Source of the DNA: Thermoanaerobaculia bacterium
GTDB lineage: Bacteria; Acidobacteriota; Thermoanaerobaculia; Gp7-AA8
Assembly (NCBI GenBank): GCA_035276365.1
Contig: DATELS010000330.1
Location: forward strand, 1-53,310
DNA length: 53,310 bases
Reading direction: 5' to 3'
Positions 35,577 to 53,310 of the stretch are shown here, in pieces (the stretch's first letter is position 1; the number at the start of each line of letters is the position of its first letter). A program made the position numbers and the translations under genes. The notes beneath the pieces were generated by a model. It did not search any database. It was not told the DNA's origin and saw only the letters and a program-made list of their open reading frames with translations.

Positions 35577-35912
35577 ATGTCGAGAAACCTGTTTCCGATC
35601 GTTCTTCTGGTCGCCCTGGTCCTAGGCTGTCAACAGAAACAGGCCGCGCCGCCCACCGACACGCACGGCCTGGCGGAAGAGGTTCACCACAAGCCGGAGC
35701 TCGCGCGAAAGATCATCGCCGACGTCGTCGCCGAGCCGCACGGCGTGACCATGATCGCCGAGGAGTTGGCGAAGAACGAGATGGCGGCGGCCAGCGTCGT
35801 CGATGAGCTGATGAAGCAACCCGCGATCGCCGACGCGATCGCCGATCGATGTGCTGCCGCCGCGATCGCACGCCAGGTCGAGGGTGGCAAGTCGTCTTCG
35901 AAGAAGAGGTGA
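35577..35912 (+). CDS. Small helical lipoprotein, hypothetical
   Basis: TAAGGAG RBS. Lipobox LVLGC. The mature part is Ala/Glu-rich and helical, with His residues (THGLAEEVHHKPE). Confidence 0.5.
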   Translation: MSRNLFPIVLLVALVLGCQQKQAAPPTDTHGLAEEVHHKPELARKIIADVVAEPHGVTMIAEELAKNEMAAASVVDELMKQPAIADAIADRCAAAAIARQVEGGKSSSKKR

Positions 35913-35916
35913 TGTG

Positions 35917-36915
35917 ATGCGATCCGCACATCTGTTCCTGGTGCTCAGTTCGGTCTTAACCACGGTCGGCGCGAGCGCGCAACCGCAGGACGTGGCAACG
36001 CCTCGGGTCCTCGAAGCGGTCGGCACTCGTCCCGATGGCTCAGCGGGATTAGGCGACCGGCTGACTGTCCGCGTCCGCAATCTTGATGTTCTCCTCGAGA
36101 CCACACGCGGATGTCAGGGTGTCGTGCTCTTCCTCTCCGACATGTCCGTGCCCAATCTTCCGCCGGAAATGTGCGACACGCGGACAGGGGAGGTTCGATT
36201 CCTCCTCGACCGGAAGCCCGAAGACGACGCGAACAATCGAGCATGGCATCAGCTCCTCGGCCGGCCGCAGGCATCGCTGCGCCGAGTGAGCGTGACCCTC
36301 GGCACCACAAACCTCGCGGTCATTCCGACGAGCGTGCGCCGCTTCCCGCTCTTCATGATTCCTCGCGACGAGCTCGCGATCTTTGCGCTCCTACTGGTTG
36401 CGTTCGTCGGTGTTGCCGTGATGCTCAGTCGCCGCACCAGCCTCATTCGAAAAGGCGGATCCGTCCGCGGTGCTCTCGGTCCATACAGTTTCTCGAAGGC
36501 ACAGCAGATGTTTTGGTTCATCCTCTTCGCCGCCGCGTTCGTCTTTCTCTGGATGATGACCGGCGAGGTCGATACGCTCACCGAATCCGTCCTGGCGCTC
36601 CTCGGCGTCAGCGCCGGAACAGGCGTCGCCGCGTGGATGATCGATAGCTCCCGCGATGCCGGCACCGCAGAGTCCCGCGGTTTCCTGCTCGATATCCTCT
36701 CGGACGGCGGCGGCCTGGCCATTCATCGAGTGCAAGCCGCTGCATGGACGCTCGTCCTCGGCGTCGTCTTCTGCGTGACCGTCTACCGCACGCTGTTCAT
36801 GCCGCAGTTCAGCTTCACGCTGATCGCGCTCATGGGGATCAGCGCCGGAACGTATGTCGCCTTCAAGTTGCCTGAGGGCCGCGTGTCGCGGACCAATCCG
36901 GCGACAGCCGTTTGA
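35917..36915 (+). CDS. Membrane protein with a periplasmic N-domain and about 4 TM helices, hypothetical
   Basis: Start at MRSAHLFLVLSSVLTTVGASA. Later TM segments include IFALLLVAFVGVAVML, MFWFILFAAAFVFLWMM and AAAWTLVLGVVFCV. Confidence 0.5.
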   Translation: MRSAHLFLVLSSVLTTVGASAQPQDVATPRVLEAVGTRPDGSAGLGDRLTVRVRNLDVLLETTRGCQGVVLFLSDMSVPNLPPEMCDTRTGEVRFLLDRKPEDDANNRAWHQLLGRPQASLRRVSVTLGTTNLAVIPTSVRRFPLFMIPRDELAIFALLLVAFVGVAVMLSRRTSLIRKGGSVRGALGPYSFSKAQQMFWFILFAAAFVFLWMMTGEVDTLTESVLALLGVSAGTGVAAWMIDSSRDAGTAESRGFLLDILSDGGGLAIHRVQAAAWTLVLGVVFCVTVYRTLFMPQFSFTLIALMGISAGTYVAFKLPEGRVSRTNPATAV

Positions 36916-37683: not shown

Positions 37684-37897
37684 GCGCCACTCAGATTCGC
37701 TGTCGTCCAGATGAGATTGATCCGACCGTGGATCACTTTTAAGTGACCGCGGGTCGGATTCACCGTCCTCAGGACGAGATTCATCCCATCGCGGATCACT
37801 TTTAAGTGACCGCGGATCGAGTTCAACTGTCCTCCAGGCGAGACTCATCCGACCGCGGCTCGAATAAAAGCGACCGCCGATCACATAAAAGTGATCC
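37684..37897. repeat. Three and a partial fourth tandem copies of a 63-64 bp unit, each ending in a GATCAC-N6-GTGA(T/C)C-type palindrome
   Basis: Units at 37684-37748, 37749-37811 and 37812-37875, plus a partial unit at 37876-37897. Palindromes are GATCACTTTTAAGTGACC (37731-37748 and 37794-37811), the degenerate GCTCGAATAAAAGCGACC (37858-37875), and GATCACATAAAAGTGATC (37879-37896). Confidence 0.8.
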
Positions 37898-37914
37898 TGC
37901 GTCGCATGAAAGTG

Positions 37915-38730
37915 TCAGCGCATCGCTTCGATGGCGTCCCACATCGCGGTGACCTCGGGCGGAAGCAGATCGCGGTCATTGCGTGCCGCCGCCCGCTGGT
38001 CGTGCTTCGACACCTCCACGCCCGGCGTTCCATCCGCCGACACCGTGACGGAGAGCCGGAAGCCGAAGCCGCCACCCACGGCCGCGCCACCCATGTCCGA
38101 GCACCAGCGACACGCGCCATCCGCTTCCGGTTCACTCGTGCCTCCGCCGAGGGACGTCGTGGGGCGGCCGCACTGCGGACAAATCATCATCCGCGTGGCT
38201 CGAATCGCTGCGTGGAGTGCACCACGCGCGGCGCTCAGCGTCTCGAGCGTCGCCGCATCAGCCCACGGCGGCAACGAGGAAATCACTGTCCAGAGAACGA
38301 GACCCACTTCGTACAGCAGATTTCCCGTCTGCACGCGACACGCCTCGCTCCAGATCGTGAAGTAGTTGTCGGCCCTGCGCGTACCAGGCGGCGTGTAGCA
38401 GAACACGCATGTTGCGTCATACCGGAGCGTCGAAGAGTCGCGACGGTCCAGATGAGAGACGAACTGCATGCGTGCGCGCCCGGTGAACGACTCGCTGGCG
38501 CTCCAGAACCGTTCGAGCTCGCGCTTCACCTTCTTCGTCGGCCAGCCGCCGGTGCGGTCGAAGACCTCGAGGAGCGCCGCGCTCGTGGTTTCGAGAAGGT
38601 CCGCCACCAGCGCCCGGTCCGCGACTCGCCATCCCTCGAGATACGAGCGGAGCGGCACAGCGCCGGGCGCGCTGCCGCACAACGGACAGCGGAAGTGAAA
38701 CATCCAGAGCTGCGCGCGTTCGCTGCTCAT
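37915..38730 (-). CDS. Hypothetical protein with three Cys pairs (zinc-ribbon-like)
   Basis: Contains FRCPLCGS, CVFC, and ICPQCG...ACRWCS. No family recognised. Confidence 0.5.
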   Translation of the reverse strand: MSSERAQLWMFHFRCPLCGSAPGAVPLRSYLEGWRVADRALVADLLETTSAALLEVFDRTGGWPTKKVKRELERFWSASESFTGRARMQFVSHLDRRDSSTLRYDATCVFCYTPPGTRRADNYFTIWSEACRVQTGNLLYEVGLVLWTVISSLPPWADAATLETLSAARGALHAAIRATRMMICPQCGRPTTSLGGGTSEPEADGACRWCSDMGGAAVGGGFGFRLSVTVSADGTPGVEVSKHDQRAAARNDRDLLPPEVTAMWDAIEAMR

Positions 38731-38791
38731 TGGTCTCAGTCTATCGAACTACTCGATGCGCCACGCGAACGGGCCGGGGTAATGTGTGGGG

Positions 38792-39461
38792 ATGCCACCC
38801 TTCGATGACGCCGCCCGACTCGCGCGCATGACGGAGTGGGCGAAGACGATTGCCTCCGAGGTTGCGGACGACCTGCAGCAACACCACATCTTCTGGCAGG
38901 TGCAGGACATCATCCGCGCCAACCCTCAGCTCACGAACGCACGCAGCCACTTCTTCCAATGGATGGGCGACGTCTTCGTCGCCTCGGCCGCCGTTGCCGT
39001 TCGCCGACAAACCGACAACTCAGACGACAGCGTTTGCCTGCGTCGTTTGTTGCGCGAAACCAAGGAGTATGTCCACATCGTCACGCGCGCGCACTACCTG
39101 TCGTTGTGCGGCGCTCCTGATGACGAGGTCGACTTCGACAACAGCTCGTTCGATCAGTGGGCAGGCGAAGGCGGTGATCATCTCGACCCGAACCTGGTGG
39201 ACGCCGATCTCCAGTCGCTGCTCGACGTCTCCGAGCGCATCCGCCACTACGCGAACAAGCGCGTCGCCCACTACGACCGTCGCGGCGTCACGCCCGGCAT
39301 GATGCCCACGTTCGACGCTTCTCGACGAAGCGTACAAAGTGATCGAGGCGCTCACGCAGAAGTACCACCTCATTTTCACGGGAGTGTGGATCGGGCAGCT
39401 GCGGCCGACGATCATCTATCCATGGACGGACGTGTTTCGGGTGCCGTGGATTCAGCAATGA
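38792..39461 (+). pseudogene. Hypothetical (possibly Abi/HEPN-like) gene interrupted by a single frameshift near 39313-39322
   Basis: The frame from ATG 38792 reads well up to ...HYANKRVAHYDRRGVTPGMMPTFDA, then becomes Arg/Ser/Ala-rich and runs antisense through the next gene. The +1 frame continues LLDEAYKVIEALTQKYHLIFTGVWIGQLRPTIIYPWTDVFRVPWIQQ*, ending at 39461. Confidence 0.5.
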
Positions 39462-39509
39462 AGTCGCGATTGCCGGAGCGAAGGCGCGCCCGAAGTCTTC
39501 GGCAGCAGA

Positions 39510-40355
39510 CTACTCCGCCGAACCGCGGGACCGTCGCTGCTTCAACTTCGAGATCGGAACAGAGACGAATGCCGAGTGGTGAACCATCGGCAGATGGAAC
39601 AACCCCCATCGCGGGAGGCCGTACTTCTTTTTCAGATACGTCAGCACGCCATGCTCATCGCGCCGGTCGATGTCGCAATCTGCAACGAACGCGATGCCAG
39701 CACTCTCGAGCGCGTAAGGGTCAACCACGCCGCCTTCGTCCGAATCGAACCAGCGAAACAGGGCTGTCTCGCGGAACTCGGCAAGCCGATCTGCGAACGG
39801 GTTGAGGAGCAGCGTAAACGTGCGGCCGGTGTCGAGAACCACAGCGCTCAGCTGCGGATACTTGAAGAAAACACTGCGGTGGAAGAAGTAGCACTGAACC
39901 GGAGCAGTCTCGCCGAGCCGTGGCATCCGGATCAGATTCGCGCTCCCGAACGCGGTATCGTGCACCTGCTTCATGAGCGTCGTGGCGTCGTTGAATTGCG
40001 GATCGATGTAGAACCAGATCAGCTTGAACGGATCGCCGGTCGCATCGATGGCGTCGAGTTGCTTGACCGCGTGCGCCATCGTCTTCTCCGTCGGTGCTGA
40101 GAAGCCCATCGGATGATGGAGCAGCTCGGTCTTGCCCTCCTTGCGAAGCGTCCGAGCGATGGACTCATCGCTGCGACGCCGCTTCACCTCGATCAGGTAC
40201 CGGTTGGCGTCGTCGGCAGCGAGCAGGTCACACGTCTTCCGTTCAGCCGTGCGCGCGAGCTTCTCCGCCCGAAACCCCATCTCGTCCAACCGACCGATGA
40301 CGTACTCCTCCTCGGCCGTGATCGCCGTGTCGATGACAGGGTCCTGGGAGGACAT
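39510..40355 (-). CDS. PD-(D/E)xK (restriction-endonuclease-fold)-like protein
   Basis: Start at MSSQDP. N-terminal EEEYVIGRLDEMGFRAEKL...TCDLLAADDANRYLIEVKRRR shows the E...D...E-V-K pattern. The C-terminal 180 aa are unassigned. Confidence 0.55.
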   Translation of the reverse strand: MSSQDPVIDTAITAEEEYVIGRLDEMGFRAEKLARTAERKTCDLLAADDANRYLIEVKRRRSDESIARTLRKEGKTELLHHPMGFSAPTEKTMAHAVKQLDAIDATGDPFKLIWFYIDPQFNDATTLMKQVHDTAFGSANLIRMPRLGETAPVQCYFFHRSVFFKYPQLSAVVLDTGRTFTLLLNPFADRLAEFRETALFRWFDSDEGGVVDPYALESAGIAFVADCDIDRRDEHGVLTYLKKKYGLPRWGLFHLPMVHHSAFVSVPISKLKQRRSRGSAE

Positions 40356-40434: not shown

Positions 40435-43400
40435 GTGAAGCGTCCCCGCTCCGGCGGCCCGGGCATGCACTACGGGCTGCTCTACCAGGTCTTCAGCAGT
40501 CTCGGCCGAGCGCTGACGGTATCGGTGCAGGAGGATCGTCGGACCGCCCAGTCGATCGTTCTGGTCGTCGAGCCTTCCGGTGGAGACCTCGTCGAGACTG
40601 GCCTAAAGCAGCGCGATGTCTATCAATACAAAGCGCGAAGCAGTCGGCGGCCTTGGTCTCTCAAGGACCTGATTGACAAAGTGTTGCCTGACCTCTACCG
40701 AGCCGTTCCTCCTGTGCCGGACCTCCCGACGCGGTACTGGCTCGTAACGGAAGGCGGCGCCGGTGAGTGGCAGGAAGCTCGTGCCCTGTTTGCGAAGCTC
40801 GCCACGATCCCGGCGGAACAGCTGCCTCGCGCGCTCGACGACGAGGCCAAACGAACGTATCTGCCGGGTCGCCGACATACAGAGCGCGAATTTTTTCTCG
40901 ACGTTGGGCGGCGCGTGACGAAGCGTAGTGGCGAGCTCGACGGCGAGACGTTGTCGCGAGTGCAGACGCTTCTCATCGACTTCGAGATCACAACGGTCGA
41001 CTTCCCCGCGGTTCAGGAGCAGGTCACGAACCTGCTCCTCGGCTTCGTTGAACATTACGAGAGCCTGCCGCACACCGTGGATGCCTTGGTCGGTCTACTG
41101 GTGCGTTGGGGTGCCGAGGGCAATCGGAGCTTCACCGTCGACGAGCTTCTTCGGTCCGCCGGCCTCGCACCGACCTCACTCTCTCTCCTGCCGCTGGCTC
41201 ACGACCGCCTCCGCGAACGCCTCGACTCACAGCTGGCCAAAACGACCTACGACCGCACGAAGCACGTTCACCGGCCGATCGCGTGGCCGGAAGGGAGAAG
41301 CGTCCTCTGCATCACCGGCGAAAGCGGCACGGGAAAGACCAGCCTCCTCGGGCAAGTAGCGGATGCGGGGGTCGAACACGGCCCGGTGGTGTTCTGGCGT
41401 CCACGTCGCAACGAGAAGGATGCTCTTCGCGGCGCAGCCGACGAGGTATGGCGTCAGATCCTCGGACACGACGCGAGCTTGCCGCTCGACGCGATCGCTC
41501 GCCGGGCCGACACACTCAAGCTCGGCGGGAGTGACTCTTGGCTGACCGTTTGTCTCGATGTGACTGCCGATCCCGCATACGCCGCAGAGCTCATCGGCGA
41601 AGACTGGAACAAGTGGCGGATTCGGATGGCGTTCACCGCCAACGCTTCGTCGGCCACGGTCTTGGCGGAGTCGAAGCATGGCAATGCCGTCGTTGTGACC
41701 GTGAATGAATTCACGCCACGGCAGATTCGCGAATTCTTCACGCGGCGTCAGATGGATTGGCGTCGCATTCCGCCGTTCGTGATCGAACCACTGCGTCGAC
41801 ATCCCATCCTCGCCTACGTGTACGCCGAGCTCGGGGATGGGGAGACGTGGCGCGATACGAACGAGTACGCACTCTTCCGACACTTCTGGCGGCGTCTCAC
41901 CGCTGCGCCCGGACAACATGAGTATCCGAACGATGCCGCTGCGTTGATCAGACTCGCCGACACGCTTCTGGAGGTGCCGGACAACACGCACTGGACAGCG
42001 ACGCAGATGGACGATCTTCGGATCGACGGCGCGACGAGAGTGCGATTGCAACGGCTCGGCTGGATTCGCAACGACGCGGACGGGCGTGCGGAATTCGTGC
42101 ATCAGCGATTGATGAACTGGGCGGTCGCCGAAGCAGCGATCGAGCGCTGTCGCGCAACGCGATGGAGCAGTCACGGGTTGGGCACGTACCTCGAGAAAAT
42201 TCTGTCTGGGAGCGATGACAATCACCGACGCTTCGGATTCGCGCCGATGGACGCGCTCTCCATTGCACTCTCGTCCGGGATGCAGGCAGGCGAAGTCGCG
42301 ACCGTTCTCGAGACGATGGAGAATCCGAGGTTTTACGAGAACCTCGTTCCTTCATTGGGTGCTGCGGTCGTCCCGGCGCTTCTCGAGCGCCTCAGGCGAG
42401 TCGGAAGCCGGCGTCGCTCGCCGAACAGTTACGTACGTGCCGCGATCCTCGCCATCGCCGCGCAGGAGTCGCTGCATTCGAGTGTCGTCGTTGAGATGCT
42501 CAATGATTCGCATACGAGTGTGCAACGCGCCGGTGCGGAGCTCTTGAAAGAACATCCTGCCGGAGAAGCACTCGATGCGCTCTGGCGCCTCCGTAACCAG
42601 CTGCGAACGACGGAGTCCGACGATCCGCTCATCAATCATCTCGATCTCGATGCTGTTGGAGACGCGCTCGAGGCGTGCGTTCGTGTGGATCCGCATTGGC
42701 TTGCCCGAACGGTTCGAGAGACGACGGAGCTCGAGAAGCTCGCTCGACTCGTGCGATTGCTCGCCACACTCGCGAACGAATCCGGCATGCAGATGTGGCA
42801 CGGATCGAAGGACGCGATTCTCGGGCTTGCGGATGATGATGCGATTGCCACCGCGGCCGCGCGCTGCATCGGGCGGTACCGGGACTCCCATGAGGTGCCG
42901 AGACTCGTCGCCTGGATCGCGGAACGATCTCGGGAGGTGGTGGAGGAGAGTTTCTCCGCTCTCGCGTTGGTCGAGCCCTCGAAGGCGCTCGAGCTGCTGC
43001 GGGACTCGCTACGCATTGCCGATGTGGCACATGTCTGGAGCGTGTGGTGGTCGCGCCTGTTTGTCTACGACCGATCTGCAATGAACGAGATCGTCATGCA
43101 GGCGTTGCGAGGGGGCGGTCTGCTGCGCAGGATCCGCATCGATGACATGGCGTGCAGCCGACTTGCGCCCGCCATCGTTGAGCGGCTGGATTATCTGGTC
43201 GAGACCGAGGGGGCAGACGAGGCCGAGGCGTTGCACAAAGAGATCGACCATTTGATGGGATTGCTCGCTCGAGCGCACACACCGGACGCGCTGCGTTTTC
43301 TCCGGGGTCTCGCCGCGACCGACGTCGGTCGACAGCTTGCCGCCTATGCTGCGAGACGTAGCGCCACGTCCAACATCCGGCCGGACAGCTTCCTCGAGCA

Positions 43401-44937
43401 TGCCGAGACAGTGCTGCTGAGGATCGGCGGTGAGCCGCTCCATACATTCCTTACGGCACAGATTGCGCGGCGGGATCATGGATGGTTCCCTGACAAGATC
43501 CGCGTGTTCCAGGCCGCGCCGTCAGCCGATGCACGTCGCATCATCGAGAACCTCCTCGAGGAGGTGTGGGACGCGAAGCGCGGCGAGGACGATGACTGGC
43601 CGGTCCGCTCGGCGTGCATCGAGACGCTCGCAGCGATGGGCGACCGCAGCGTCGTCATGCGCGCCGAGGAAAGTGGCCGCCTCTCTTACTCGGGTGACTT
43701 TCCGCGAGCCATACGGGATCTTCCGCCTGCAGACGATCGCGAGACGATGCGCCTTCTGCAGAAGGCAGCATCCGATGATGATGCGATACCCGCAATCCGC
43801 GCACTAGCATGGTCGCGGCGAACGGACGTCGTTGGACACCTTGTCGAGCAGGTAGTGTCTTCGCGTCCGGAAGAGGTCCGGAACGCAGCGCGCACTGCAT
43901 TGAAGTATCTGCCGACCGGCCCAATGGCGGCGAATCACCGTGAGCTACTCCGTGCGGCAGAAGAGCATTCAACGTACCTCGATGCACTCTTTCGGGATGG
44001 CGCACCGGAAGCGGTCGGCGACGCGGCGAACTATCTCGGTGCGATCGGAACGAAGAGTTGGACGTTCGACGACGCCCACTCCGCCGCATGGTTGGTCGTT
44101 TACCGCGAGCGTTTGGAGCTGGCTTCGCAGGTGTGGCAGTGGGCGAAGGGTCACACGCGTTTTTACTGGGAGAGCGACGACACGATCTGGCGAGCCCTCG
44201 GGTATGTGGAGAACGAAGATGCAGAAGAGTTCCTGCTCGCCGAGGCGTATAGCGGAAAACGTGGCGAGATCAATCCAGCAGCAATTGAAGCCCTCGCGCA
44301 TCGACAGCGCGATGAAGCATTCGCCGCGGCCATGCACTTGTTCGATGAGGGAAAGGGTGCGCGCGCATCCGCGCCCGACCTGCTCATGGAGATCGACAGC
44401 GCCCGAGCCGTAAAGGTGATCGCGGAACGTCTGCCCCGCGAGCGCAACGTTCTCATTCGCGCCAGTTCGTGTATCGCCTTGCGCGGAGTCGGCGATGACA
44501 TTCGGCGGATGGCGCATGACTGGATGAATCACGCTGATCCGTTCACGCGCGCGTCCGGATGCGAGTTGCTCGGATGGCTGCAGCCCGAGGATACGAGCCG
44601 ACTGCGCGACATAGCCCTCGCGGACATCGATCCGATGGTGCAGGTGTTCGCCTTGGATGCGTTCGCGCTCCACGAGTCGCAGCGCGTCACGGGCGAGCTC
44701 CTTGCGGAGCTGCGGAGCGCGGAAAGCACGACAGCTTGGGCAGTCACCGACGCTCTCATCACATCCGCGCACTGCTTTCTCCTCGATCGATTTGACGATC
44801 CGCTGGCGCTTTATCCGGCGCTGAAGGGAAAGCAAGGAGCTCTTCGTGTCAGCGCTGCAGAGCGGCTCAAGAAACGAGTCGAGGAAGTGCAGAAGAAGTA
44901 CGACGAGCCGATGCGTCGCGACTTCTATCGGCACTGA
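40435..44937 (+). CDS. Antiviral-STAND (Avs/NLR)-like protein: Cap4/DUF4297-like nuclease N-domain, P-loop NTPase, and a long HEAT-repeat C-terminus
   Basis: 1500 aa (alternative ATG at 40465). N-domain is GLLYQVF...VVEPSGGDLVE...DVYQYKARS. Walker A is ITGESGTGKTSLL. Multiple HEAT/PBS-lyase-like repeats are present (DSHTSVQRAGAELL, DPFTRASGCELLGWL, DPMVQVFALDAFA). Confidence 0.75.
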   Translation: MKRPRSGGPGMHYGLLYQVFSSLGRALTVSVQEDRRTAQSIVLVVEPSGGDLVETGLKQRDVYQYKARSSRRPWSLKDLIDKVLPDLYRAVPPVPDLPTRYWLVTEGGAGEWQEARALFAKLATIPAEQLPRALDDEAKRTYLPGRRHTEREFFLDVGRRVTKRSGELDGETLSRVQTLLIDFEITTVDFPAVQEQVTNLLLGFVEHYESLPHTVDALVGLLVRWGAEGNRSFTVDELLRSAGLAPTSLSLLPLAHDRLRERLDSQLAKTTYDRTKHVHRPIAWPEGRSVLCITGESGTGKTSLLGQVADAGVEHGPVVFWRPRRNEKDALRGAADEVWRQILGHDASLPLDAIARRADTLKLGGSDSWLTVCLDVTADPAYAAELIGEDWNKWRIRMAFTANASSATVLAESKHGNAVVVTVNEFTPRQIREFFTRRQMDWRRIPPFVIEPLRRHPILAYVYAELGDGETWRDTNEYALFRHFWRRLTAAPGQHEYPNDAAALIRLADTLLEVPDNTHWTATQMDDLRIDGATRVRLQRLGWIRNDADGRAEFVHQRLMNWAVAEAAIERCRATRWSSHGLGTYLEKILSGSDDNHRRFGFAPMDALSIALSSGMQAGEVATVLETMENPRFYENLVPSLGAAVVPALLERLRRVGSRRRSPNSYVRAAILAIAAQESLHSSVVVEMLNDSHTSVQRAGAELLKEHPAGEALDALWRLRNQLRTTESDDPLINHLDLDAVGDALEACVRVDPHWLARTVRETTELEKLARLVRLLATLANESGMQMWHGSKDAILGLADDDAIATAAARCIGRYRDSHEVPRLVAWIAERSREVVEESFSALALVEPSKALELLRDSLRIADVAHVWSVWWSRLFVYDRSAMNEIVMQALRGGGLLRRIRIDDMACSRLAPAIVERLDYLVETEGADEAEALHKEIDHLMGLLARAHTPDALRFLRGLAATDVGRQLAAYAARRSATSNIRPDSFLEHAETVLLRIGGEPLHTFLTAQIARRDHGWFPDKIRVFQAAPSADARRIIENLLEEVWDAKRGEDDDWPVRSACIETLAAMGDRSVVMRAEESGRLSYSGDFPRAIRDLPPADDRETMRLLQKAASDDDAIPAIRALAWSRRTDVVGHLVEQVVSSRPEEVRNAARTALKYLPTGPMAANHRELLRAAEEHSTYLDALFRDGAPEAVGDAANYLGAIGTKSWTFDDAHSAAWLVVYRERLELASQVWQWAKGHTRFYWESDDTIWRALGYVENEDAEEFLLAEAYSGKRGEINPAAIEALAHRQRDEAFAAAMHLFDEGKGARASAPDLLMEIDSARAVKVIAERLPRERNVLIRASSCIALRGVGDDIRRMAHDWMNHADPFTRASGCELLGWLQPEDTSRLRDIALADIDPMVQVFALDAFALHESQRVTGELLAELRSAESTTAWAVTDALITSAHCFLLDRFDDPLALYPALKGKQGALRVSAAERLKKRVEEVQKKYDEPMRRDFYRH

Positions 44938-44952
44938 GATACTGGAGAGCTG

Positions 44953-45540
44953 GTGAAGAAGCGCGCGGCCAGAGCGGACCCCGACCCACCCATAGGCGAG
45001 ACCGCAGTAGAGATTCTCGAACAGATCAGCCGCGCCTTCGGTGCACCACGGCTGACCGTGGAGCTTCTTCCCGCGACGACGTGGGGCTCGAACCTTCGGT
45101 CCGCCTTGCGCGTAAGCCACTGGGACAAGCTCCGCCGCGCCGCATATGCGGCTGCGAACTATCGCTGCGAAATCTGTGGCGGTGTTGGTCATCAGTATCG
45201 AGTCGCATGCCACGAGCGATGGGAGTTCGACGACGCGCAGAGCTACCAGCGGCTCGTCGGTCTCATCGCGGTCTGTCCCGAATGCCACGACGTGAAGCAC
45301 TTCGGCCGCGCAAACGAGAACGGCCGCGGGCCATACGCGAAGTTGCACCTCTGCGAAATCAACGACTGGTCGATCGCCGACGCTGATCGCTACCTGAAGC
45401 TCGCCTTCGCACTGTGGAAGCTACGCACGCGCAAAGAATGGCAGCTCGACCTGACGTGGCTCGAGCAGTTCGGGATTGTGCCGAAGGCGCAATCGATCAC
45501 CACTCCTCTTCGTCTTCGAAGTCCTCGTCTTCCGGCGTGA
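44953..45540 (+). CDS. Small HNH/treble-clef-like zinc-finger protein
   Basis: GTG start 5 nt after GGAGAG and 16 nt after the STAND stop. Contains YRCEICGG...VACHERWEFDD...IAVCPECHDVKHFG. Confidence 0.55.
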   Translation: MKKRAARADPDPPIGETAVEILEQISRAFGAPRLTVELLPATTWGSNLRSALRVSHWDKLRRAAYAAANYRCEICGGVGHQYRVACHERWEFDDAQSYQRLVGLIAVCPECHDVKHFGRANENGRGPYAKLHLCEINDWSIADADRYLKLAFALWKLRTRKEWQLDLTWLEQFGIVPKAQSITTPLRLRSPRLPA

Positions 45541-48500
45541 CATCGACCGTTCGCTTGATGCGTTGGATCTCAGCCGCGACGCTCTCATAAAAGTCTCGAG
45601 CCGGAGCCGAGATCGGTAACGCATCGCGCGCTGCGATTGCGCTCGTGAGGATCTGTCGCCGCAGGTCATCGGTCGTGGTCCGCGGCACGGCACATCTCAG
45701 CAGCGCATCGTGCATCGCATCGCGCAGCTCCGAATCAACTGCTGCCGCATCGGCGAGGAGCTGCGTGACGAACGCCGAGTCCTCCAGAATCAGGCGCCGG
45801 CACGCTTCGCCACGAACGCAGTTAGCGACGAACGTGACGGCCGAATCCGTTCGCTCCGCGCTCTTCCGCTTGAGGAATGCGACCGCTGCCGCATTCATCT
45901 TCCCTGATGCGAGTGTGAATAGCCGCGGCGCGTCGTACGCCATCCCGTTCGCGTACGCATCGGCGATCTTCGTGAGCAGCAATTCGTACTCCTCGGAGGT
46001 CGAAAGCGCTTCATCAATCACCACCTCCGGCGGATCCATCGGCAGAGCCGTGAAGCGCAGCATGCTCACGCGGTCCTCCCGCTGGATACGACGGAGCAGC
46101 AAGTCGATGATCGCAAGCGGGTCGCGGCGGCCGCACTCCTCGACGAAGTCGCCGAGATGAACGCCGTCGAGCTGCGGCACCGTTTCGAGCTTCGCAATGC
46201 AGCTTCGGAGCTCGTTGGCGGTCAACGCCGAAAACAGAGTCTGCTCCGGCTCGTCGAACATCTCCGCCATGCGTTCGACGTCCTTGTGATCGCCGCGCAA
46301 GTCGGTGCCCAGAAGAAGCGCAGCTGCAGTCCGTGGGTGGCGTTTCGCAAGGCGAGGTAGGCTACTCAGGCCGGCGACCGCTACTTCGCCGGCCATCGCG
46401 AAGAGGGCGGTGATGTTCTCGAGATCCCTCTCGTTCAGATCGTCTTCGCCGATCCACCATGCGTACGACGCAACCACCGTCGCCGCCATCTCACGCGCAT
46501 CGTTCCGCACGATCGTTGAGATCAGGACGTGGAACCGAAGCTCATCCGACGCGCGCAACGGCATCACGATCGAATTCGCGTAGCGTGCAAGCTCCGGCGC
46601 GTTCGCGGCCGTGAGCAGCTCCGCCATTTCAGCGGCGACCACGGGATTCGCGTTCGCAACGGCGGTGAGAAACGGCGCCGGATGTGGATGCAGATCGAGG
46701 ATTCGCAGCCCGCCGATGGTGTCGTCGAGGTGCCGAATGGCATCGCTGGCCTGAGTTGTCGCCGCAAACTCTTCAGCGGTTGCTCTGAGAAGACGCGCCG
46801 TCTCGTCTTGGTCGACCTCAACCGTGCGATGCGAGCCCAACGGGCTATTGATGAACCGCGCGACTCTGTCGATCAACGTCTCCGATAGCGAGGCGAGTAC
46901 CTGCTGCGCAGCCTCTCGCATGTCTTCGTCGCCGGTGTCCCGCTCCGCGTACCACTCAACAGTCTCGCGAATCTGAATGCCGATGACGGGATCGGCATTG
47001 CGCTCCGCAAGACGACGCAAGATGCTCATCGCTTCGAGGCGGTGCGGTTGCCATGCTGCGGCCTGTTCGTCCGTGACCAACAGGCCGCCGAGGCTGTGTG
47101 GCCGCTGCAACGCTTCGCCGAGCGCCTTCACCGCCGTCCCAACCACTTGTCGGTCGGAGTGATCCAGCGCTTTCACGACAATGGCTCTCGCTCTACTTCG
47201 CGTCCCTTTGAGGTATTCGGCGGGCACTAAGAACGATCGCGTGGTGATCGTCAGATCGTCAACAGTGTGGTCCATGCCGGTCTTCATGAACAGCGACTGC
47301 ACGACGCGAACGATGCTGATCCATTCCCCTGGTGTTTGTGTGATCTTCAACCACGTCTCGACACGGTTCATGAGCCGCCGATGAACCCACACAGGCTTCC
47401 GCAGACCGGGCGCCATGATCTCGCGCAGAACGCTGACGGGATCTTTGTCGTCACTGTTCTTCCGAGGCTTCGGAAGGCGCTCGTCGTTCGCCAGACGCCA
47501 GAGGAAGTCGCACGCCGCATCGAACGTCGACGGGTCGTACGCCGCGTATCGAACGACCTCGGGGAGGGCCGCGACGACGTCGCCGTGCGACGTCGTTACG
47601 AGCGCTGCATAGGGGCCGGTCTCTTCGGCCGCGGTCGGGAACTCGAGGGCGAGCTTCGCCAGCTCGAGCATCTTCCTCGGAAGGAAGTACCCCACTTCCT
47701 TCAAAGTGCCCAGCATCTGTCGTCGTTCGGAGTTCGGCGCGGCTTTGAACGTCGCGACGACTGAATCCCATACCGTTCCGAGTACGCGGAGCTCCTCGCC
47801 GGTCTTCCGGCCAACTCTCCAGTCGACCGCGGCCAGATTGCGAAGGAGAGCGTGATCGAGCGTGCCGACCGCGGCGACGATCTTCTCGACGAACGTGCTG
47901 CCGTTCACGCCCGGCCGCGTGCACGCTACGCCGAGGATGTAGTCGGAGAGCAAGTCGGGGACGATTCGGAGACCATCATGGCGCCGGGCGAGCACGCCGT
48001 GGCGATGGAGACGTTCGCACCACGATGCGGCGGCTTCTGCATCCATAGACGTCAGCGCCTGAACGGCTGCAATGAAGCGTTGAGACAACGGTTGGATCGG
48101 CGCGAGTGCCGCGATGATCTCCAGAAGTCCTCGCACCTCGGCCTCGTCAGACCCGGGCTTCGCGTTCTCCACGATCTCATCGAAGAATCGCGCGAGCGCG
48201 GTCTCGCGGAACAGCTCGTCGTTGGCCAGCAGCGACGGAGCGACACGATGCTCGCGCAGCAGGCGGCCTCCCACGATCGTGATGAGCGGACAGTCTCTCG
48301 TCGCTGCGGCAAGCTCGCGAGCGAGATGCCGGAACTCCGGCCCAAGCACTTCCGCTGCGAGCGCTTCCACTTCCGACAGCGTCATTTGCTCGAGCGGCTC
48401 GACGCTCGCCATCTCGCGCACGTCGATGTGGTGTCGTGAGGCGAGCGACGGCAGCTCATCGCGCAGCTGCGGGCGCGTCGCGAGAACGAGTTTTGTCCGT

Positions 48501-49345
48501 GTGCGCACAGCATGCTGGAAGAGCAGTCCGAGATCCTTGCGACGGTGCGCGTCATCGATGATGAGAATCGTGTTCGAGACGGGGAGCTCGCCGAGAGCGG
48601 GAGCCGTGATGTCGAAATCGAGCTGCGCGAAGTACACGTGGTGTGTCCGTTCCGCTCGTTGCGCGAATGCCTGCAGGAGTTTGCTCTTCCCGATGCCGCC
48701 GCGGCCGGGGAGGACGAAGATCAGCTGTTCCGGATTTGCGACGAACGTTTCGAGCTTCTGCAGATCTTCGCTGCGGCCGACCAGCGCGTAGGAATGATTG
48801 AAGATGCGGCTCGAATCGAGAAACGGCGCAAAGAAATCGTCCGGCTCGAGGAACGCGCCGAACGGCTCGATGCCGAGGAAGTCACGGCACAACTGGCCAC
48901 TAAAGTTCGTCCGGACGATGCGCCGGGCGACCTCGGTCGGCAGAGCGCGCACCTTCGCCGAGATGTCGTCCACGTCCCATACCGTCCAGAGCTGGTGCTT
49001 CTTTTCTTCGTCCCGCACACCTGCCGTCGCTGCGCAAGCGATCAGCGCGTAATAGCGGCTCGCCTGGTACGTCACGGTTTCCGCGAGGTTTCGAAGATCC
49101 GCAGGGCCGAACTTCTGCACGCGCCGGCATTGATGGCAGACGGTCTCGCCGCTCACGTCCGTCGAGACGAGGTCGATGCCTCCCTGCGGATCGCCGGGGA
49201 CGCCGTGCTGATGGCATTCGACGATCTCTGGAAGAGCACTCACAAGGTCGCGGCAGAACGACTGGAAGCGCTCGGGCGTGAGTGCCAGTAGAGGGAGTAG
49301 TTGCACCGTCGGGCGCACGGCGGCGGGTAGAAACGCATCAGGCAT
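45497..49345 (-). CDS. Antiviral-STAND (Avs/NLR)-like protein: Mrr-like restriction-endonuclease N-domain, NB-ARC-like P-loop NTPase, and a helical-repeat C-terminus
   Basis: 1282 aa. N-domain is LTPERFQSFCRDLVSALP...GDPQGGIDLVS...VCHQCRRVQKF (D-GID...QCK). Walker A is LPGRGGIGKSKLL and Walker B is ILIIDDAH. The remaining roughly 900 aa are helical ARM/HEAT-like sequence. Confidence 0.75.
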   Translation of the reverse strand: MPDAFLPAAVRPTVQLLPLLALTPERFQSFCRDLVSALPEIVECHQHGVPGDPQGGIDLVSTDVSGETVCHQCRRVQKFGPADLRNLAETVTYQASRYYALIACAATAGVRDEEKKHQLWTVWDVDDISAKVRALPTEVARRIVRTNFSGQLCRDFLGIEPFGAFLEPDDFFAPFLDSSRIFNHSYALVGRSEDLQKLETFVANPEQLIFVLPGRGGIGKSKLLQAFAQRAERTHHVYFAQLDFDITAPALGELPVSNTILIIDDAHRRKDLGLLFQHAVRTRTKLVLATRPQLRDELPSLASRHHIDVREMASVEPLEQMTLSEVEALAAEVLGPEFRHLARELAAATRDCPLITIVGGRLLREHRVAPSLLANDELFRETALARFFDEIVENAKPGSDEAEVRGLLEIIAALAPIQPLSQRFIAAVQALTSMDAEAAASWCERLHRHGVLARRHDGLRIVPDLLSDYILGVACTRPGVNGSTFVEKIVAAVGTLDHALLRNLAAVDWRVGRKTGEELRVLGTVWDSVVATFKAAPNSERRQMLGTLKEVGYFLPRKMLELAKLALEFPTAAEETGPYAALVTTSHGDVVAALPEVVRYAAYDPSTFDAACDFLWRLANDERLPKPRKNSDDKDPVSVLREIMAPGLRKPVWVHRRLMNRVETWLKITQTPGEWISIVRVVQSLFMKTGMDHTVDDLTITTRSFLVPAEYLKGTRSRARAIVVKALDHSDRQVVGTAVKALGEALQRPHSLGGLLVTDEQAAAWQPHRLEAMSILRRLAERNADPVIGIQIRETVEWYAERDTGDEDMREAAQQVLASLSETLIDRVARFINSPLGSHRTVEVDQDETARLLRATAEEFAATTQASDAIRHLDDTIGGLRILDLHPHPAPFLTAVANANPVVAAEMAELLTAANAPELARYANSIVMPLRASDELRFHVLISTIVRNDAREMAATVVASYAWWIGEDDLNERDLENITALFAMAGEVAVAGLSSLPRLAKRHPRTAAALLLGTDLRGDHKDVERMAEMFDEPEQTLFSALTANELRSCIAKLETVPQLDGVHLGDFVEECGRRDPLAIIDLLLRRIQREDRVSMLRFTALPMDPPEVVIDEALSTSEEYELLLTKIADAYANGMAYDAPRLFTLASGKMNAAAVAFLKRKSAERTDSAVTFVANCVRGEACRRLILEDSAFVTQLLADAAAVDSELRDAMHDALLRCAVPRTTTDDLRRQILTSAIAARDALPISAPARDFYESVAAEIQRIKRTVDVTPEDEDFEDEEEW

Positions 49346-49540
49346 GAGTCATCTCGCTCCGGTGTGGAAACATCCGGACTGCCGGGCTCTACTCCTGCCG
49401 AGTGGCTAGCTGCTGCGGCCACGAGCTGGCGAGCTACAGCCTCCACCGGTTTTCCGCGGCAAGCAGCCTCCCGGCAAAAGCTGCGGTTCGTCGTCTCGTG
49501 GCAGGTTCCCTGGCACACGTCACGAGCGGTAAGAAGCCCC

Positions 49541-50500
49541 TCAGGAAGTTTGTTGAGGAGCCAATCGGGGGCACGCATGGGGCAACACGAACATCTCGGC
49601 GTTGTAGAAGTTGAGGAAGCCGACCCCGAGACGGTTGTACTTCTGAGAGGCGGAGAGGCACTTCGTGCAGAACACTTCGGCCCGGTCGTTTAGATCGTCG
49701 AACAGAATGATGCCGTCGAAGACGGATCGCTCGAACGGATGGCGCACGAACACGAGCGCATCCTGCAGACCCGCCCGCGAGCCGGCTTGAAAATGAGGTA
49801 AGCGCCCGCTCTGCTGACCTCCGAGAACGAGGTAGTACTCGATGATAGACGCAGCCTGGATTCGCCGCTGCTGTTCGGACGTAAGGGTCGTCTTGCGGAG
49901 GATCGCCATCTCGAGCGATGCGGTGCTGGTGTTGAGCGCTCCCGCTTCCACGGCCGGCAAGTGAACATCCACCGCGACATTCAGTCGAGTGAATTCCGGG
50001 CGCCACACGACCTCAGCGCGACGTGTGTATCGATGGAGCACGCCGAACTCGGGAGTCTCAGGGAGCTCGACGTGTGTGGTGGCGTTCGAGTGACGATTGA
50101 AGGGCTCCGGCCGTCCGCTCATGATGGCGCGCAGGAGCTGACGAGCGAACGTCTGGTAGTCGCCGGGTTTCGGTAGGTTCCGGAGGTCGAACTCATCGCT
50201 CGACTGGCGATCCAGCCGCAGGTAGATGTCGCACTGATCGAGATTGGGGTGCTGCTGAAAGCGTCTCGAGGATCACGCGCTTCAGCGCGAGCCATTGCAC
50301 CTCGAACTGCAAGAAGGCGCTGCCGCGGTCATTCACTTGGCCGACTGAGAAGATATCGGTCAGCTCGAATCCCAGCCGAGCGCCTGCGACGGTGATGACG
50401 GCGTCAGGAGGATCGTTTGTGGGGGCGTCGACGGCTGCTCCCGCGAGCTGCGGTGCAATCGGGTGAGGCGCTCCAGTACCTGACGCTCGGAATCTCGCAT
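49541..50500 (-). pseudogene. Degraded gene readable only across three reading frames (at least two frameshifts), directly upstream of the STAND gene
   Basis: Frame 1 from ATG 50500 reads MRDSERQVLERLTRLHR... Frame 2 reads ...DAVITVAGARLGFELTDIFSVGQVNDRGSAFLQFEVQWLALKRVILETL. Frame 3 is ORF 49541..50122 extended upstream, reading FQQHPNLDQCDIYLRLDRQSSDEF...IILFDDLNDRAEVFCTKCL... The shifts lie near 50395-50405 and 50258-50268. Confidence 0.45.
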
Positions 50501-50530
50501 TGCACTCACATCAAAGTGTCGCGAACCGGC

Positions 50531-51226
50531 TCAGAATGGAGTGACGTCGGTCTTCCGCGTCTTCTGCGCTTCCTCACGCGCCGTGCGCCACGCGGCCGTC
50601 TCGATCGAACCGTTGGTCAAACGCCATGATTGATCCGATGCCAGGTAGATGTGCATCGTCTCGTTTTCCCACGCGACGACATAAGTTTTGTAATCGAAGG
50701 GGACAAACTCGGGTCGCGAGCCAGCGTAGCGGCCGCCGACGTAGCTCCGTAGAGTTTTCTTTTCAACGCCTGTATGGCGGAACGTTCGTTTGAATGTAGG
50801 TGTGCCGTATTTCTGCTCGAATGCTGTCGCGAGCTCGTGGTACGTGGGTGGAGCGTATTGCGCCATGCCGGCCATGAGCCCCTGAGTGAAGTCCACGGCG
50901 ACGAACATCCCCTGATGGAAGACGTAGTAGGTGTTGATCACCTCACCGGCGACCTTGAACGCCTTACTGCGGTCCTTCGTGTGACAGCGAGTCGCGTTCT
51001 TCGGGTAACCCTCCCATGTCGCTTCCTCGCATTTCATCGGCCCGAGGGTGGCTTGAGCTTCGTCGAGTGTCGCGCCGAACTTCACCCCGCGGAAGTCGGC
51101 CGGTGCCTGGGTCCACGGCTCGGGCGACTTCACCTCTTCTTCTTTGGTGACATTGTGAGACTGTGCGTGCGCAACGACCGCCGCGATGATCACAACCGCC
51201 AAACAGCGTCCAATTCGCATAGTCAT
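50531..51226 (-). CDS. Secreted hypothetical protein
   Basis: Start at MTMRIGRCLAVVIIAAVVAHAQS (signal peptide). Balanced composition and no recognised motif. Confidence 0.5.
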   Translation of the reverse strand: MTMRIGRCLAVVIIAAVVAHAQSHNVTKEEEVKSPEPWTQAPADFRGVKFGATLDEAQATLGPMKCEEATWEGYPKNATRCHTKDRSKAFKVAGEVINTYYVFHQGMFVAVDFTQGLMAGMAQYAPPTYHELATAFEQKYGTPTFKRTFRHTGVEKKTLRSYVGGRYAGSRPEFVPFDYKTYVVAWENETMHIYLASDQSWRLTNGSIETAAWRTAREEAQKTRKTDVTPF

Positions 51227-51255
51227 CTTCAAAGCTCCTGGTCGTTCTGATCGCG

Positions 51256-51999
51256 TCACCGCGTCTCCACCGAGATCTCTGCGCCTTCGTACACGAACGT
51301 GAAGAGATACTCCCTCCGTTCGTCGCCCATGCGAATCGGAATCAGATAGCGATACTTGTTGCCCTTCGCTGCGGCGACTTTCTCCTCGACCCGCGCGCGA
51401 ACATCAGCCGCCGACTCACCCGCGATCGGGCTCGCGGAGTCGCTGGTGGGGAAGAGGAACTTCTTCGATTCGCCGACCAGGTCCGCGGCGTGAACCCATT
51501 CGTCCAACTGCGTTCCGGCGACGATAATGGACGTCGGCGACGACGGCGGGAGCTCCTCCTCTTTGAGCAGCGACGATTCACCGCGGGCCAGCCGCCGCTT
51601 CATCTCCTCGAAGATGCGTTTTCCGCGTTCCTCCGAAGCCGCGCGAGACTCGTGACGAAGAGGATGGGAGGCATTCTGCTCATCGATGAACGCGCCGTCC
51701 TCCCAGAGCACCTTCGCACTCTCTCCGCCTTTGTTCTCCACGACGAGCAGGAGTCCGTGCGAATTCAGGTTCGCGGTGAACGCGAGCCGATCATCCGAAA
51801 ACGTCGTCACGCTCCCGAGGTACTTCGGATCGGCGGTGCCGAGCATGTCCGGCGTTGCCGTCGAAGTCTTCCCACCCGCGGTCACCTTCACCTCTACGAG
51901 ACGAACCTGCGGCGCAGGTCGAACGAACGTCAACGCACTGGCGCTCCAGGCGAGCAACACGACACTCACGACTGCGACGGATGCAGCTCTTGAATTCAC
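51256..51999 (-). CDS. Secreted or anchored hypothetical protein
   Basis: GTG start 5 nt after GGAGAA. N-terminus is VNSRAASVAVVSVVLLAWSASA. No recognised motif. Confidence 0.45.
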   Translation of the reverse strand: MNSRAASVAVVSVVLLAWSASALTFVRPAPQVRLVEVKVTAGGKTSTATPDMLGTADPKYLGSVTTFSDDRLAFTANLNSHGLLLVVENKGGESAKVLWEDGAFIDEQNASHPLRHESRAASEERGKRIFEEMKRRLARGESSLLKEEELPPSSPTSIIVAGTQLDEWVHAADLVGESKKFLFPTSDSASPIAGESAADVRARVEEKVAAAKGNKYRYLIPIRMGDERREYLFTFVYEGAEISVETR

Positions 52000-52085
52000 G
52001 CGGATTCTCCTCTGGACGATGGACTCACCGGGAAGCACGCGCGCTACCGTAAACGCGACCGGTTGTCGGCCTGAGATTTTGCGGG

Positions 52086-52991
52086 ATGTACTGCCTGGCG
52101 GCAAGGTCGTGCGCGCTTCCTCGAGTTACAATAACTCTCGTGACGATTCTGCGTCCCCCGGATCCAGCCAGCATCGCCTTGGCGAATGCCGTCCAGCGTC
52201 GGCTCCCGCGGCTCCTCGACGAAGCTCGTCGAGGCGAGCCGCTCCTGTCGCGCGCTCGCACCGTCAAGGCGGCGCGCGGTCCGGTTCGTGTCTCGGTCGA
52301 TCTGGGCGCAGGAGCCCTTTCGCAGGCGACGTACGACCTCGCCTTTCTCTGTTCGGGTGTTTCGACTCCAGCCGAGTTCGCGGCCTCGCTCGAGAACGAC
52401 GCGTACTTTGACGTGGTGGCAAACCGGATTGCGAGAGTCATCGCGGACGATCAAAGTGGTCGAACGGAGGACGCCTGGTATGCAGAGGACCGATCTCCAG
52501 GTTTCCTCGGTCTTCCCGCGTACGCTCCGACGGATCCAACGGACGAGTGGATCGGCGGCCTCGCGCCAGACACGGAGGGGTGGAGCCCCCGGGTTGCGCA
52601 CGTCGTAACAAACGACCCGCGATCAATCGCACAGGCATTGATCGACCTCTCGCTCGACTGCATGGACGATCTGACAGAGCCGACCTTGATTGCGGCCGGA
52701 CGACGCCTCGCCGCCCAGGTACGACGCGGCTTCCAGGTACAGCAACGGTTCTACTCGATTCGCGGCGGCGTTCACTACATGCACGTCGGCGCCGCGGAGA
52801 TGTTCTGCGCGCCTGCGGCCGACCCGAATGCCGCGTTTGTGCTTCATCCTGACGATTTCGCGCTGCACCATACGCCGCCGCTGGTCACGGCATCGGGTGG
52901 CTCCCTGCTGGCACGCGTCGATCAGCAACTCGTGTGTACGCGCCGATACCTTCTCGGCCGCCTCCAGCGGTATGACCGTCTTCAGCACTGA
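52086..52991 (+). CDS. Hypothetical cytoplasmic protein
   Basis: A 301-aa ORF with coding-like composition in its second half. The start is uncertain. Divergent from the gene at 51999. Confidence 0.4.
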   Translation: MYCLAARSCALPRVTITLVTILRPPDPASIALANAVQRRLPRLLDEARRGEPLLSRARTVKAARGPVRVSVDLGAGALSQATYDLAFLCSGVSTPAEFAASLENDAYFDVVANRIARVIADDQSGRTEDAWYAEDRSPGFLGLPAYAPTDPTDEWIGGLAPDTEGWSPRVAHVVTNDPRSIAQALIDLSLDCMDDLTEPTLIAAGRRLAAQVRRGFQVQQRFYSIRGGVHYMHVGAAEMFCAPAADPNAAFVLHPDDFALHHTPPLVTASGGSLLARVDQQLVCTRRYLLGRLQRYDRLQH

Positions 52992-53310
52992 CTACGTAAG
53001 TCGGATCGACACGACCTACAGTCGGATGCCGGTGCGCCTGCGGCCGCTCCTGTACAGAGTCGTCTGTGCACCGGAGAACGCGGCGCTGCGTGCGGAGATC
53101 GAAGAGTACGTTGCCGAGCTCCATCCGGACGATGCGCCGCGATACATCGATCGCCTGCAGAAGTCGCACGATCAGGGGCCCGCATTTCAGAACACCTACC
53201 ACGAACTGGTGGCCGGGCATCTTCTGCGCACTCTGGGTTTCTCCCCCCGGTACGACCCGACGATCATCATCGGCGGAAAACCTCGAACGCCCGACTGGGA
53301 CGTCCCTGCG
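52972..53310 (+). CDS. Hypothetical protein, N-terminal 113 codons (continues beyond the window end)
   Basis: Open frame from ATG 52972 to the window end. Reads MTVFSTDYVSRIDTTYSRMPVRLRPLLYRVV...YHELVAGHLLRTLGFSPRYDPTIIIGGKPRTPDWDV, which could be the start of a PD-(D/E)xK-like core. Not in the ORF track because it has no stop. Confidence 0.35.
   Translation, partial: MTVFSTDYVSRIDTTYSRMPVRLRPLLYRVVCAPENAALRAEIEEYVAELHPDDAPRYIDRLQKSHDQGPAFQNTYHELVAGHLLRTLGFSPRYDPTIIIGGKPRTPDWDVPA

Follow-up and report, generated by a model that had tools for sequence, protein, structure and literature searches.

The census of Lee et al. (Nature 2026, PMC13581612) counts 589 clades, 684 sensor clusters and no fewer than 90 sensor families in the defence-associated STAND repertoire, which includes Avs1-24. 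In the antiviral STAND (Avs) proteins Avs3, Avs4 and Avs7, binding of the target leads to tetramerisation, and the nuclease heads (Cap4 or Mrr) pair into active dimers (PMC13581612; 10.64898/2026.08.25.746987). EcAvs4, of Avs type 4, whose structure is available in the portal-bound form (PDB 8DGF), combines in one polypeptide an Mrr-type head at the N-terminus, a STAND NTPase in the centre and, at the C-terminus, a large sensor of helical repeats. The same arrangement is found in a 1282-residue protein encoded by a 53,310-bp contig from a metagenome-assembled genome of Thermoanaerobaculia (Acidobacteriota); this contig, at its full length, is called the window below. The protein is probably a stand-alone Avs-like (antiviral STAND, bacterial NLR-like) abortive-infection sensor. 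It shares with the proteins described by Lee et al. the tripartite logic, the swappable effector heads, the defence-island setting, the helical-repeat sensor and the predicted ligand-induced oligomerisation that activates a nuclease head (PMC13581612). Its host belongs to the Thermoanaerobaculia, whereas the tested representatives given in the legend of Fig. 5 of that study are all Proteobacteria or Myxococcus (PMC13581612). The gene and its parts are as follows.

45497..49345, minus strand: gene of the 1282-residue effector-STAND-sensor protein, an uninterrupted open reading frame (ORF) with an ATG start and its stop codon at 45497-45499
48974..49288, minus strand: head, Mrr_cat-type PD-(D/E)xK domain, residues 20-124, from Pfam PF04471, the fold predicted by AlphaFold 2 (AF2) and the heads of relatives
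49262..49264, minus strand: Q28, which takes the place of the catalytic Glu on helix 1 (E in 49 of 52 heads outside the clade of this protein)
49172..49174, minus strand: D58 (GGIDL), catalytic Asp where strand 2 begins, invariant in 62/62 aligned family members and 66/66 aligned heads
49124..49132, minus strand: Q72-C73-R74 on strand 3, in place of the Q-x-K motif of the family, from the head alignment
48821..48973, minus strand: conserved helical linker, residues 125-175, with the ISxKVR...FLG motif region and with little or no variation at R133, F148, F156, L157 and G158
47906..48820, minus strand: STAND NTPase module (nucleotide-binding domain, helical domain and winged helix), residues 176-480, from Pfam, Foldseek and invariant residues
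48683..48706, minus strand: Walker A, GRGGIGKS, residues 214-221, from the family alignment and a motif check
48545..48568, minus strand: Walker B, ILIIDDAH, residues 260-267, from the family alignment and a motif check
45542..47905, minus strand: sensor, a HEAT-type alpha-solenoid with one beta-hairpin (about residues 689-706), residues 481-1268, from AF2, Foldseek and a profile
45497..45541, minus strand: disordered acidic C-terminal tail (VTPEDEDFEDEEEW) and stop codon, from predicted local distance difference test (pLDDT) values below 50

An earlier note on this DNA had described the 1282-residue ORF of the minus strand and quoted several motifs from its translation. The ORF, with its ATG start and without interruption, is confirmed, and the motifs are all found: FQSF (residues 27-30), GGIDLVS (which contains D58), CHQCRRVQKF (Q72 and R74), GRGGIGKS and ILIIDDAH. 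The searches returned 113 homologues, 13 of which are full-length, 50-93% identical and aligned from Met1, which supports both the start codon and the full length. The ratio of nonsynonymous to synonymous substitution rates (dN/dS, Nei-Gojobori), calculated against two close relatives (loci L001 and L009), is 0.16-0.17 overall, and the gene is therefore real and under selection. It is 0.13-0.15 in the head, 0.08-0.11 in the NTPase and 0.19 in the sensor: purifying selection acts on all three parts.

The GenBank protein HKR64294.1 (locus tag VJZ00_11235) corresponds to residues 659-1282 only (624 residues). The head and the NTPase are therefore missing from the public protein and invisible to annotation-based defence finders, and the full ORF corrects the public record. 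The note had proposed three parts, a nuclease-type head, a P-loop NTPase and helical repeats, all of which are present. Its length of "about 900" residues for the repeats is too large: the nucleotide-binding, helical and winged-helix module occupies residues ~176-480, which leaves ~800 residues (481-1282).

The N-terminal domain is a homologue of Mrr_cat and the PD-(D/E)xK nucleases, in agreement with the Mrr-like assignment made from the sequence. Its sole Pfam match is PF04471 (Mrr_cat), with residues 20-124 aligned to positions 2-107 of the 115 of the profile. The heads of two relatives, P0015 and P0037, scanned alike, pass the cutoff of this family (21 bits) with 31.3 and 37.5 bits; many family members also carry PF04471 in their precomputed Pfam annotation. 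The head matches those of ~65 relatives with E values of 1e-45 to 1e-20 (best 3.8e-45), and those of P0015 and P0037 with E values of 1e-45 to 1e-31. A search of PHROGs returned nothing for it.

In the AF2 model of the head (pLDDT 83-98), DSSP assigns helices to residues 24-37 and 81-90 and strands to residues 41-46, 59-63, 68-74 and 97-102. The model thus has a predicted alpha-beta-beta-beta-alpha-beta nuclease core, in the canonical PD-(D/E)xK order, with Q28 in helix 1, D58 at the beginning of strand 2, and Q72 and R74 on strand 3. Three further helices (residues 125-134, 137-147 and 150-157) form the linker to the NTPase. The fold order and the D...QxK-type motif on strands 2 and 3 are those of E. 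coli Mrr and Mrr_cat. The differences are that the head is fused, as an effector, to a STAND switch, and that Gln replaces the helix-1 Glu and Arg the catalytic Lys. Mrr also has an N-terminal winged-helix domain that binds modified DNA, which this protein lacks.

The nuclease head of the earlier note therefore stands as a fold, and in part as an active site: D58 and Q72 are kept, E28Q and K74R are substitutions. Compared with a canonical D-QxK site with a helix-1 Glu, the signature here is Q-D-Q-R. Among 136 Mrr-type heads carried by the same NTPase-sensor body, the signature at positions 28, 58, 72 and 74 is E-D-Q-K in 81, E-D-Q-R in 27, Q-D-Q-R in 16, Q-D-Q-K in 2 and other or gapped in 10. 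The two substitutions are not distributed alike. Position 74 is R in all 14 members of the clade to which the protein belongs, and outside the clade it is K in 43/52 heads and R in 9/52. Because Arg at this position is widespread (44/136 heads, many phyla), it is probably a tolerated variant. Position 28 is Q in 13/14 clade members, and this Glu-to-Gln change is nearly specific to the clade. Despite the Q-D-Q-R signature, selection constrains the head as much as it does the other domains, judging by dN/dS.

The NTPase is of the STAND type and not a housekeeping AAA+ protein, as had been proposed from its P-loop. In 62 aligned family members, G214, G216, G217, G219, K220, D265, R291 and P463 are invariant; the sensor-1 Arg and the Walker A and B residues are invariant in the same 62 sequences, and the Walker A K220 and the Walker B D264 and D265 are intact. 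The Pfam matches of the module are all below threshold (AAA_16, nSTAND_NTPase5, NACHT and NB-ARC, the first two being the closest). One relative, P0101, exceeds the cutoff of nSTAND_NTPase5 (PF25199), with 35.3 bits for a cutoff of 34, and most homologues have PF25199 in their precomputed Pfam annotation. This closest named NTPase family defines a domain, not a system, and has no assigned function or ligand; the text of Kaur et al. 2021 contains nothing specific on nSTAND5. A scan of the protein against NCBIfam gave only a far-sub-threshold match to the P-loop of Hda.

The AF2 model of residues 1-500, which includes the head and the NTPase, has a mean pLDDT of 89.7. Its best match in the PDB, according to Foldseek, is EcAvs4 bound to the portal (8dgf, E 1.3e-8, 534 columns), and the two chains 8dgf_A and 8dgf_B are the top two matches, over 519-534 columns. 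They are followed by a wheat NLR resistosome, SAMD9, NRC3, CED-4, Apaf-1, EfAvs5 and RPP1, with generic AAA+ proteins interleaved.

The C-terminal part is modelled with high confidence (residues 481-1282, pLDDT 93.1, predicted TM-score 0.87) as an all-alpha solenoid that has a single beta-hairpin and ends in a disordered tail. Its neighbours in Foldseek are eukaryotic HEAT solenoids: SF3B1, karyopherin-beta and CAND1. The family profile, searched against the PDB sequences, similarly matches the HEAT repeats of the designed alphaRep and of AP-2 beta. No solved Avs sensor, 8dgf chains included, is found among the best 50 Foldseek matches of the sensor model; in this respect the HEAT solenoid differs from the portal-binding sensor of EcAvs4. 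It also differs from most sensors in the study of Lee et al., which are TPR-like (PMC13581612). The acidic character of the tail is a property of the family: the last 15 residues have a net acidic charge of at least 3 in 62% of 106 members, compared to 13% of random windows of 15 residues in the same proteins. The tail could be an autoinhibitory or DNA-mimicking element.

The likeness to Avs4 (Mrr-type) that the earlier note pointed out thus concerns the layout, in which an Mrr-type head is fused directly to a STAND NTPase, and for which 8dgf is the top Foldseek match. It does not extend to membership of the Avs4 family: the best 50 fold matches of the sensor show no homology to that of EcAvs4, the searches of PADLOC and of the PDB sequences revealed no sequence-level relationship with EcAvs4, and PADLOC gives no Avs/AVAST match. 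The broader traits of the Avs proteins are present, namely the tripartite organisation (effector, STAND NTPase, repeat sensor) with intact Walker A and B motifs. The protein is an ordinary, uncharacterised member of the antiviral-STAND class. Compared with the PADLOC models and the solved Avs structures its family is unnamed; it may be numbered in the census of Lee et al.

This family is modest in size. The sensor has 763 representatives at 50% clustering (E<=1e-3) among 1.84 billion, and in most of the full-length matches listed it starts ~480-600 residues into a protein of 1250-1400 residues. The spread is patchy, over more than 10 phyla, which include the Acidobacteriota, Gemmatimonadota, Cyanobacteria, Chloroflexota, Planctomycetota, Verrucomicrobiota, Actinomycetota, Patescibacteria and Proteobacteria, and archaea (ANME-1 and Halobacteria). 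A phage or prophage origin was considered and rejected, as the family is rare in viral contigs (only 2 loci among 2.9 million). The protein thus adds an uncharacterised family of HEAT sensors (~760 clusters at 50% identity) to the bacterial NLR-like (Avs) receptors, in lineages that have no tested receptor of this type (e.g., Acidobacteriota, Gemmatimonadota, Chloroflexota and Actinomycetota).

On the conserved NTPase-sensor body, the head is exchanged for other defence effectors. The heads found are of the Mrr type, of the Mrr type preceded by an XRE-type helix-turn-helix (HTH), DUF4062 (E 1.4e-17), PNP_UDP_1 (E 3e-19) and LmuA-like (E 3e-9); the PNP_UDP_1 head also matches the PN effector of CBASS (E 8e-18). 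The XRE-type HTH precedes the Mrr head in ~40/113 homologues and is absent from the protein of the window. One such HTH-Mrr-STAND protein, from Nocardia (P0060), has a 90% cluster that holds entries named "recombinase family protein" of 574-622 residues and one of 1955 residues (P0126, P0129, P0130 and P0132), which hints at a fusion with a serine recombinase, or at an annotation run-on, in some Nocardia genomes.

The genomic setting was judged qualitatively from seven neighbourhoods of relatives. They contain a type I restriction-modification system; HepT/MNT, Mrr-NA-iREase and Fic genes; an island with an integrase and a transposase; a WYL gene with a second nSTAND5 protein and its EMARD_N partner; and a PIN-RHH toxin-antitoxin pair. 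PADLOC, run on seven relatives as well, has no model for the body. No neighbour is common to the orthologues: when all the neighbouring genes in the window were compared to 87 loci (tblastn), only three near-identical relatives matched. An all-against-all comparison of the ORFs of the orthologue loci yielded nothing but shadow ORFs, antisense to or overlapping the gene, which are an artefact of the high G+C content and not conserved neighbours. The lack of a conserved neighbour indicates a single-gene system, and the modularity of the head, the patchy spread and the setting are hallmarks of single-gene defence STAND proteins.

If the protein is indeed an Avs-like sensor, the HEAT-repeat solenoid (residues 481-1268) would hold it in an autoinhibited state until a phage-derived protein, the putative ligand, binds. 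Binding would induce the ATP-dependent oligomerisation of the central STAND NTPase, which would bring the Mrr-type PD-(D/E)xK heads together; the heads would then attack DNA, and the infected cell would be killed or arrested. The oligomerisation on ligand binding, the activation of the heads by proximity and the cleavage of DNA are all proposed by analogy with Avs3, Avs4 and Avs7.

Several results weigh against this proposal. The matches to named families are below the cutoffs: the head alone (residues 1-175) matches Mrr_cat with E 1.3e-3 and 19.3 bits for a cutoff of 21, and the NTPase matches nSTAND_NTPase5 with 20.3 bits for a cutoff of 34. In PADLOC-DB v2 the protein has no Avs or AVAST match at E<=1; the best match, PDC-S27 (E 0.0054), covers the P-loop only. 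Searches of the PDB sequences are no more favourable. The full protein gave nothing relevant (phmmer), the best 60 of the 97 matches of the family profile (E<=1) are HEAT repeats and generic P-loops, none of them an Avs or Mrr chain, and the head-only profile (A3) returned two chance matches, with no nuclease or Avs chain. The TM-scores of the Foldseek matches of residues 1-500 are low (~0.3; 0.32 with a root-mean-square deviation of 16 Å), because the match spans several domains that differ in their relative orientation. Lastly, the complete catalytic set of a helix-1 Glu, a strand-2 Asp and a strand-3 (E/Q)xK is replaced by Q28-D58-Q72-R74. Two of the four canonical catalytic residues are thus exchanged for near-isosteric, usually inactivating counterparts. 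Since D58 is the only carboxylate left, the cleavage of DNA may be weak, altered or absent, and the Q28/R74 pair makes it the weakest step of the mechanism; the nuclease activity of the head is uncertain.

The same residues could mean that the Q-D-Q-R head is a pseudo-nuclease, in which the Mrr fold has been kept for binding DNA or as an oligomerisation platform, with an output such as DNA clamping or the recruitment of a factor. Indeed, E28Q and K74R are classic inactivating substitutions, they occur in 13-14 of the 14 clade members compared to E-D-Q-K in 81 of the 136 heads of the family, and no conserved Lys or Glu nearby compensates for them; the purifying selection on the head shows that it nevertheless does something. 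This explanation is unlikely, as the Arg shared by so many phyla has the look of a tolerated variant and not of decay, both D58 and Q72 persist, and no conserved neighbouring gene could supply another effector. In the Avs proteins so far tested, mutation or deletion of the effector abolished cell death (PMC13581612). A stronger form of the idea, in which the Mrr head of the whole clade is a conserved pseudo-nuclease that signals or kills by means other than DNA cleavage, such as multivalent DNA binding triggered by the ligand, with the acidic tail as a DNA-mimicking autoinhibitor, is speculative and rather improbable. The protein would then be an Avs-type receptor whose effector, descended from a nuclease, is not an enzyme. 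No feature other than the Q-D-Q-R head and the acidic tail could be new mechanistically, and nothing in the analysis overturns current ideas. The E-D-Q-K, E-D-Q-R and Q-D-Q-R heads found on one body are a natural experiment: their comparison could reveal to what extent an immune nuclease head depends on the PD-(D/E)xK active site.

A degenerate active site could also mean DNA binding only, as in a non-immune STAND regulator, a signal-transduction ATPase of the MalT/LAL type whose head binds DNA and controls transcription. The XRE-type HTH that precedes the Mrr head in ~40 of the 113 homologues fits with such a role, as does the published STAND tree, in which defence clades are interspersed with regulator clades (PMC13581612). 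However, the protein itself has no HTH, PNP, LmuA-like and DUF4062 effector heads on the same body make no sense for a regulator, and no operon that could be the target of regulation is conserved. The restriction-modification, toxin-antitoxin and mobile-island settings and the patchy distribution across phyla also speak against it, so that a regulatory function is very improbable and the Avs-like sensor remains the preferred reading.

On its 3' side the gene converges with two others.

44953..45540, plus strand: HNH endonuclease gene, 195 residues, matching phrog_5200 (E 4.9e-48 over residues 33-172)
40435..44937, plus strand: convergent P-loop and HEAT-repeat protein, 1500 residues, with HEAT_2 (E 9.7e-13) and a weak nSTAND5 match (Pfam)

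The phrog_5200 match establishes that the ORF called HNH-like in the earlier note is a genuine HNH endonuclease gene. The overlap reported there is also correct: the HNH ORF ends at 45540 and the stop codon of the STAND gene lies at 45497-45499, so that the last 14 codons of the former and the 3' end of the latter overlap by exactly 44 nt (45497..45540). The sensors of the two giant proteins had been described as unrelated by eye. At sequence level the proteins are indeed unrelated, the best BLASTP match between them having an E value of 0.033, and paralogy was rejected on this basis. The Cap4 head attributed to the 1500-residue protein, on the contrary, found no support, either in Pfam (no match even at E<=10) or in PADLOC. 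The family of the 1500-residue protein is much rarer, with 12 homologues at E<=1e-10. The length of these homologues (1490-1491 residues) indicates that the true start of the gene is probably Met11 (40465) rather than the GTG at 40435.

The note had suggested that the convergent genes might be coupled. The two giants and the HNH gene would then form one unit, through antisense interference or shared termination at the overlap, which is real, measures the same 44 nt in each of the three closest relatives, and leaves no intergenic room for a terminator between HNH and the STAND gene. These three relatives (L001, L002 and L009) are 88-93% identical to the window, and the conservation reflects recent common ancestry. 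They are also the only ones of the 87 family loci in which the 1500-residue and HNH genes occur nearby; the other 84 have neither within 10 kb. Conversely, orthologues of the 1500-residue gene (66-67% identity) are found without HNH and without the STAND gene; there, a DUF4062-TPR gene occupies the convergent position, and the flanks are conserved. The overlap itself spans only the disordered acidic tail and HNH residues past the conserved domain, which ends at about residue 172, and the scan for promoters and terminators gave results at shuffle level, with 5 terminator-like sites compared to 3.5 +/- 2.0 in shuffled sequences. Coupling is thus left unsupported and can hardly be credited. By these comparisons the overlap is best seen as a packing accident rather than a coupling device, and the 1500-residue and HNH genes would be unrelated neighbours, not partners, of the Avs-like protein.

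The STAND and HNH genes appear instead as cargo in a variable slot between conserved flanks, since the orthologues of the 1500-residue gene hold other genes there. The slot is bounded by the 1500-residue gene on one side and, on the other, by a pair of genes that encode an HTH protein and a 535-residue protein and are 84-87% identical across lineages. The latter flank lies past the end of the window (the regions compared are 1-20000 of L001 and L002, 8000-18300 of L093 and L094, and 40435-53310 of the window). In L093 and L094 the slot contains the DUF4062-TPR gene and one or two unannotated genes of ~230-500 residues. No tRNA gene or flanking repeat marks the ends of the island.

The gene directly upstream of the STAND gene (49544-50500, minus strand) encodes 318 residues in L001. 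In the window it appears frameshifted, with an ORF of 193 residues left, and tblastn places residues 15-82 of the 318 in another frame; it is either a pseudogene or an assembly error. This gene and the two before it (237 and 247 residues, no Pfam match) are found only in close relatives.

On the far side of the 1500-residue gene, an ORF of 339 residues (38786-39805, plus strand) has a weak match to HEPN_AbiU2 (E 7.7e-5, below the cutoff) and is largely absent from L001, L002 and L009; it may be another variable defence gene beside the 1500-residue STAND protein. Two ORFs tested against the three closest relatives, 35851..36915 and 37891..38808, are unmatched there. Directly upstream of the latter (plus strand), positions 37691-37910 contain three tandem copies of ~63 nt (67-100% identity) and an inverted copy, each with an AT-rich palindrome-like core, GATCACTTTTAAGTGA(C/T)C. 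These repeats could be operator or iteron-like sites.

The remaining part of the contig is chromosomal and has a metal-handling and efflux look (6276-8603, minus strand; 9834-12155, 21977-27659 and 30639-33134, plus strand). It encodes two P-type ATPases, one of which has an HMA domain, a TonB-dependent receptor and, in a row, an outer-membrane efflux protein (OEP), a 417-residue ORF and an AcrB-family transporter. A homologue of XRE-type HTH proteins is found at ~13560-13814, and a 999-residue ORF (14009-17008, minus strand) has a C-terminal SEC-C motif (E 2e-9) as its sole Pfam domain.

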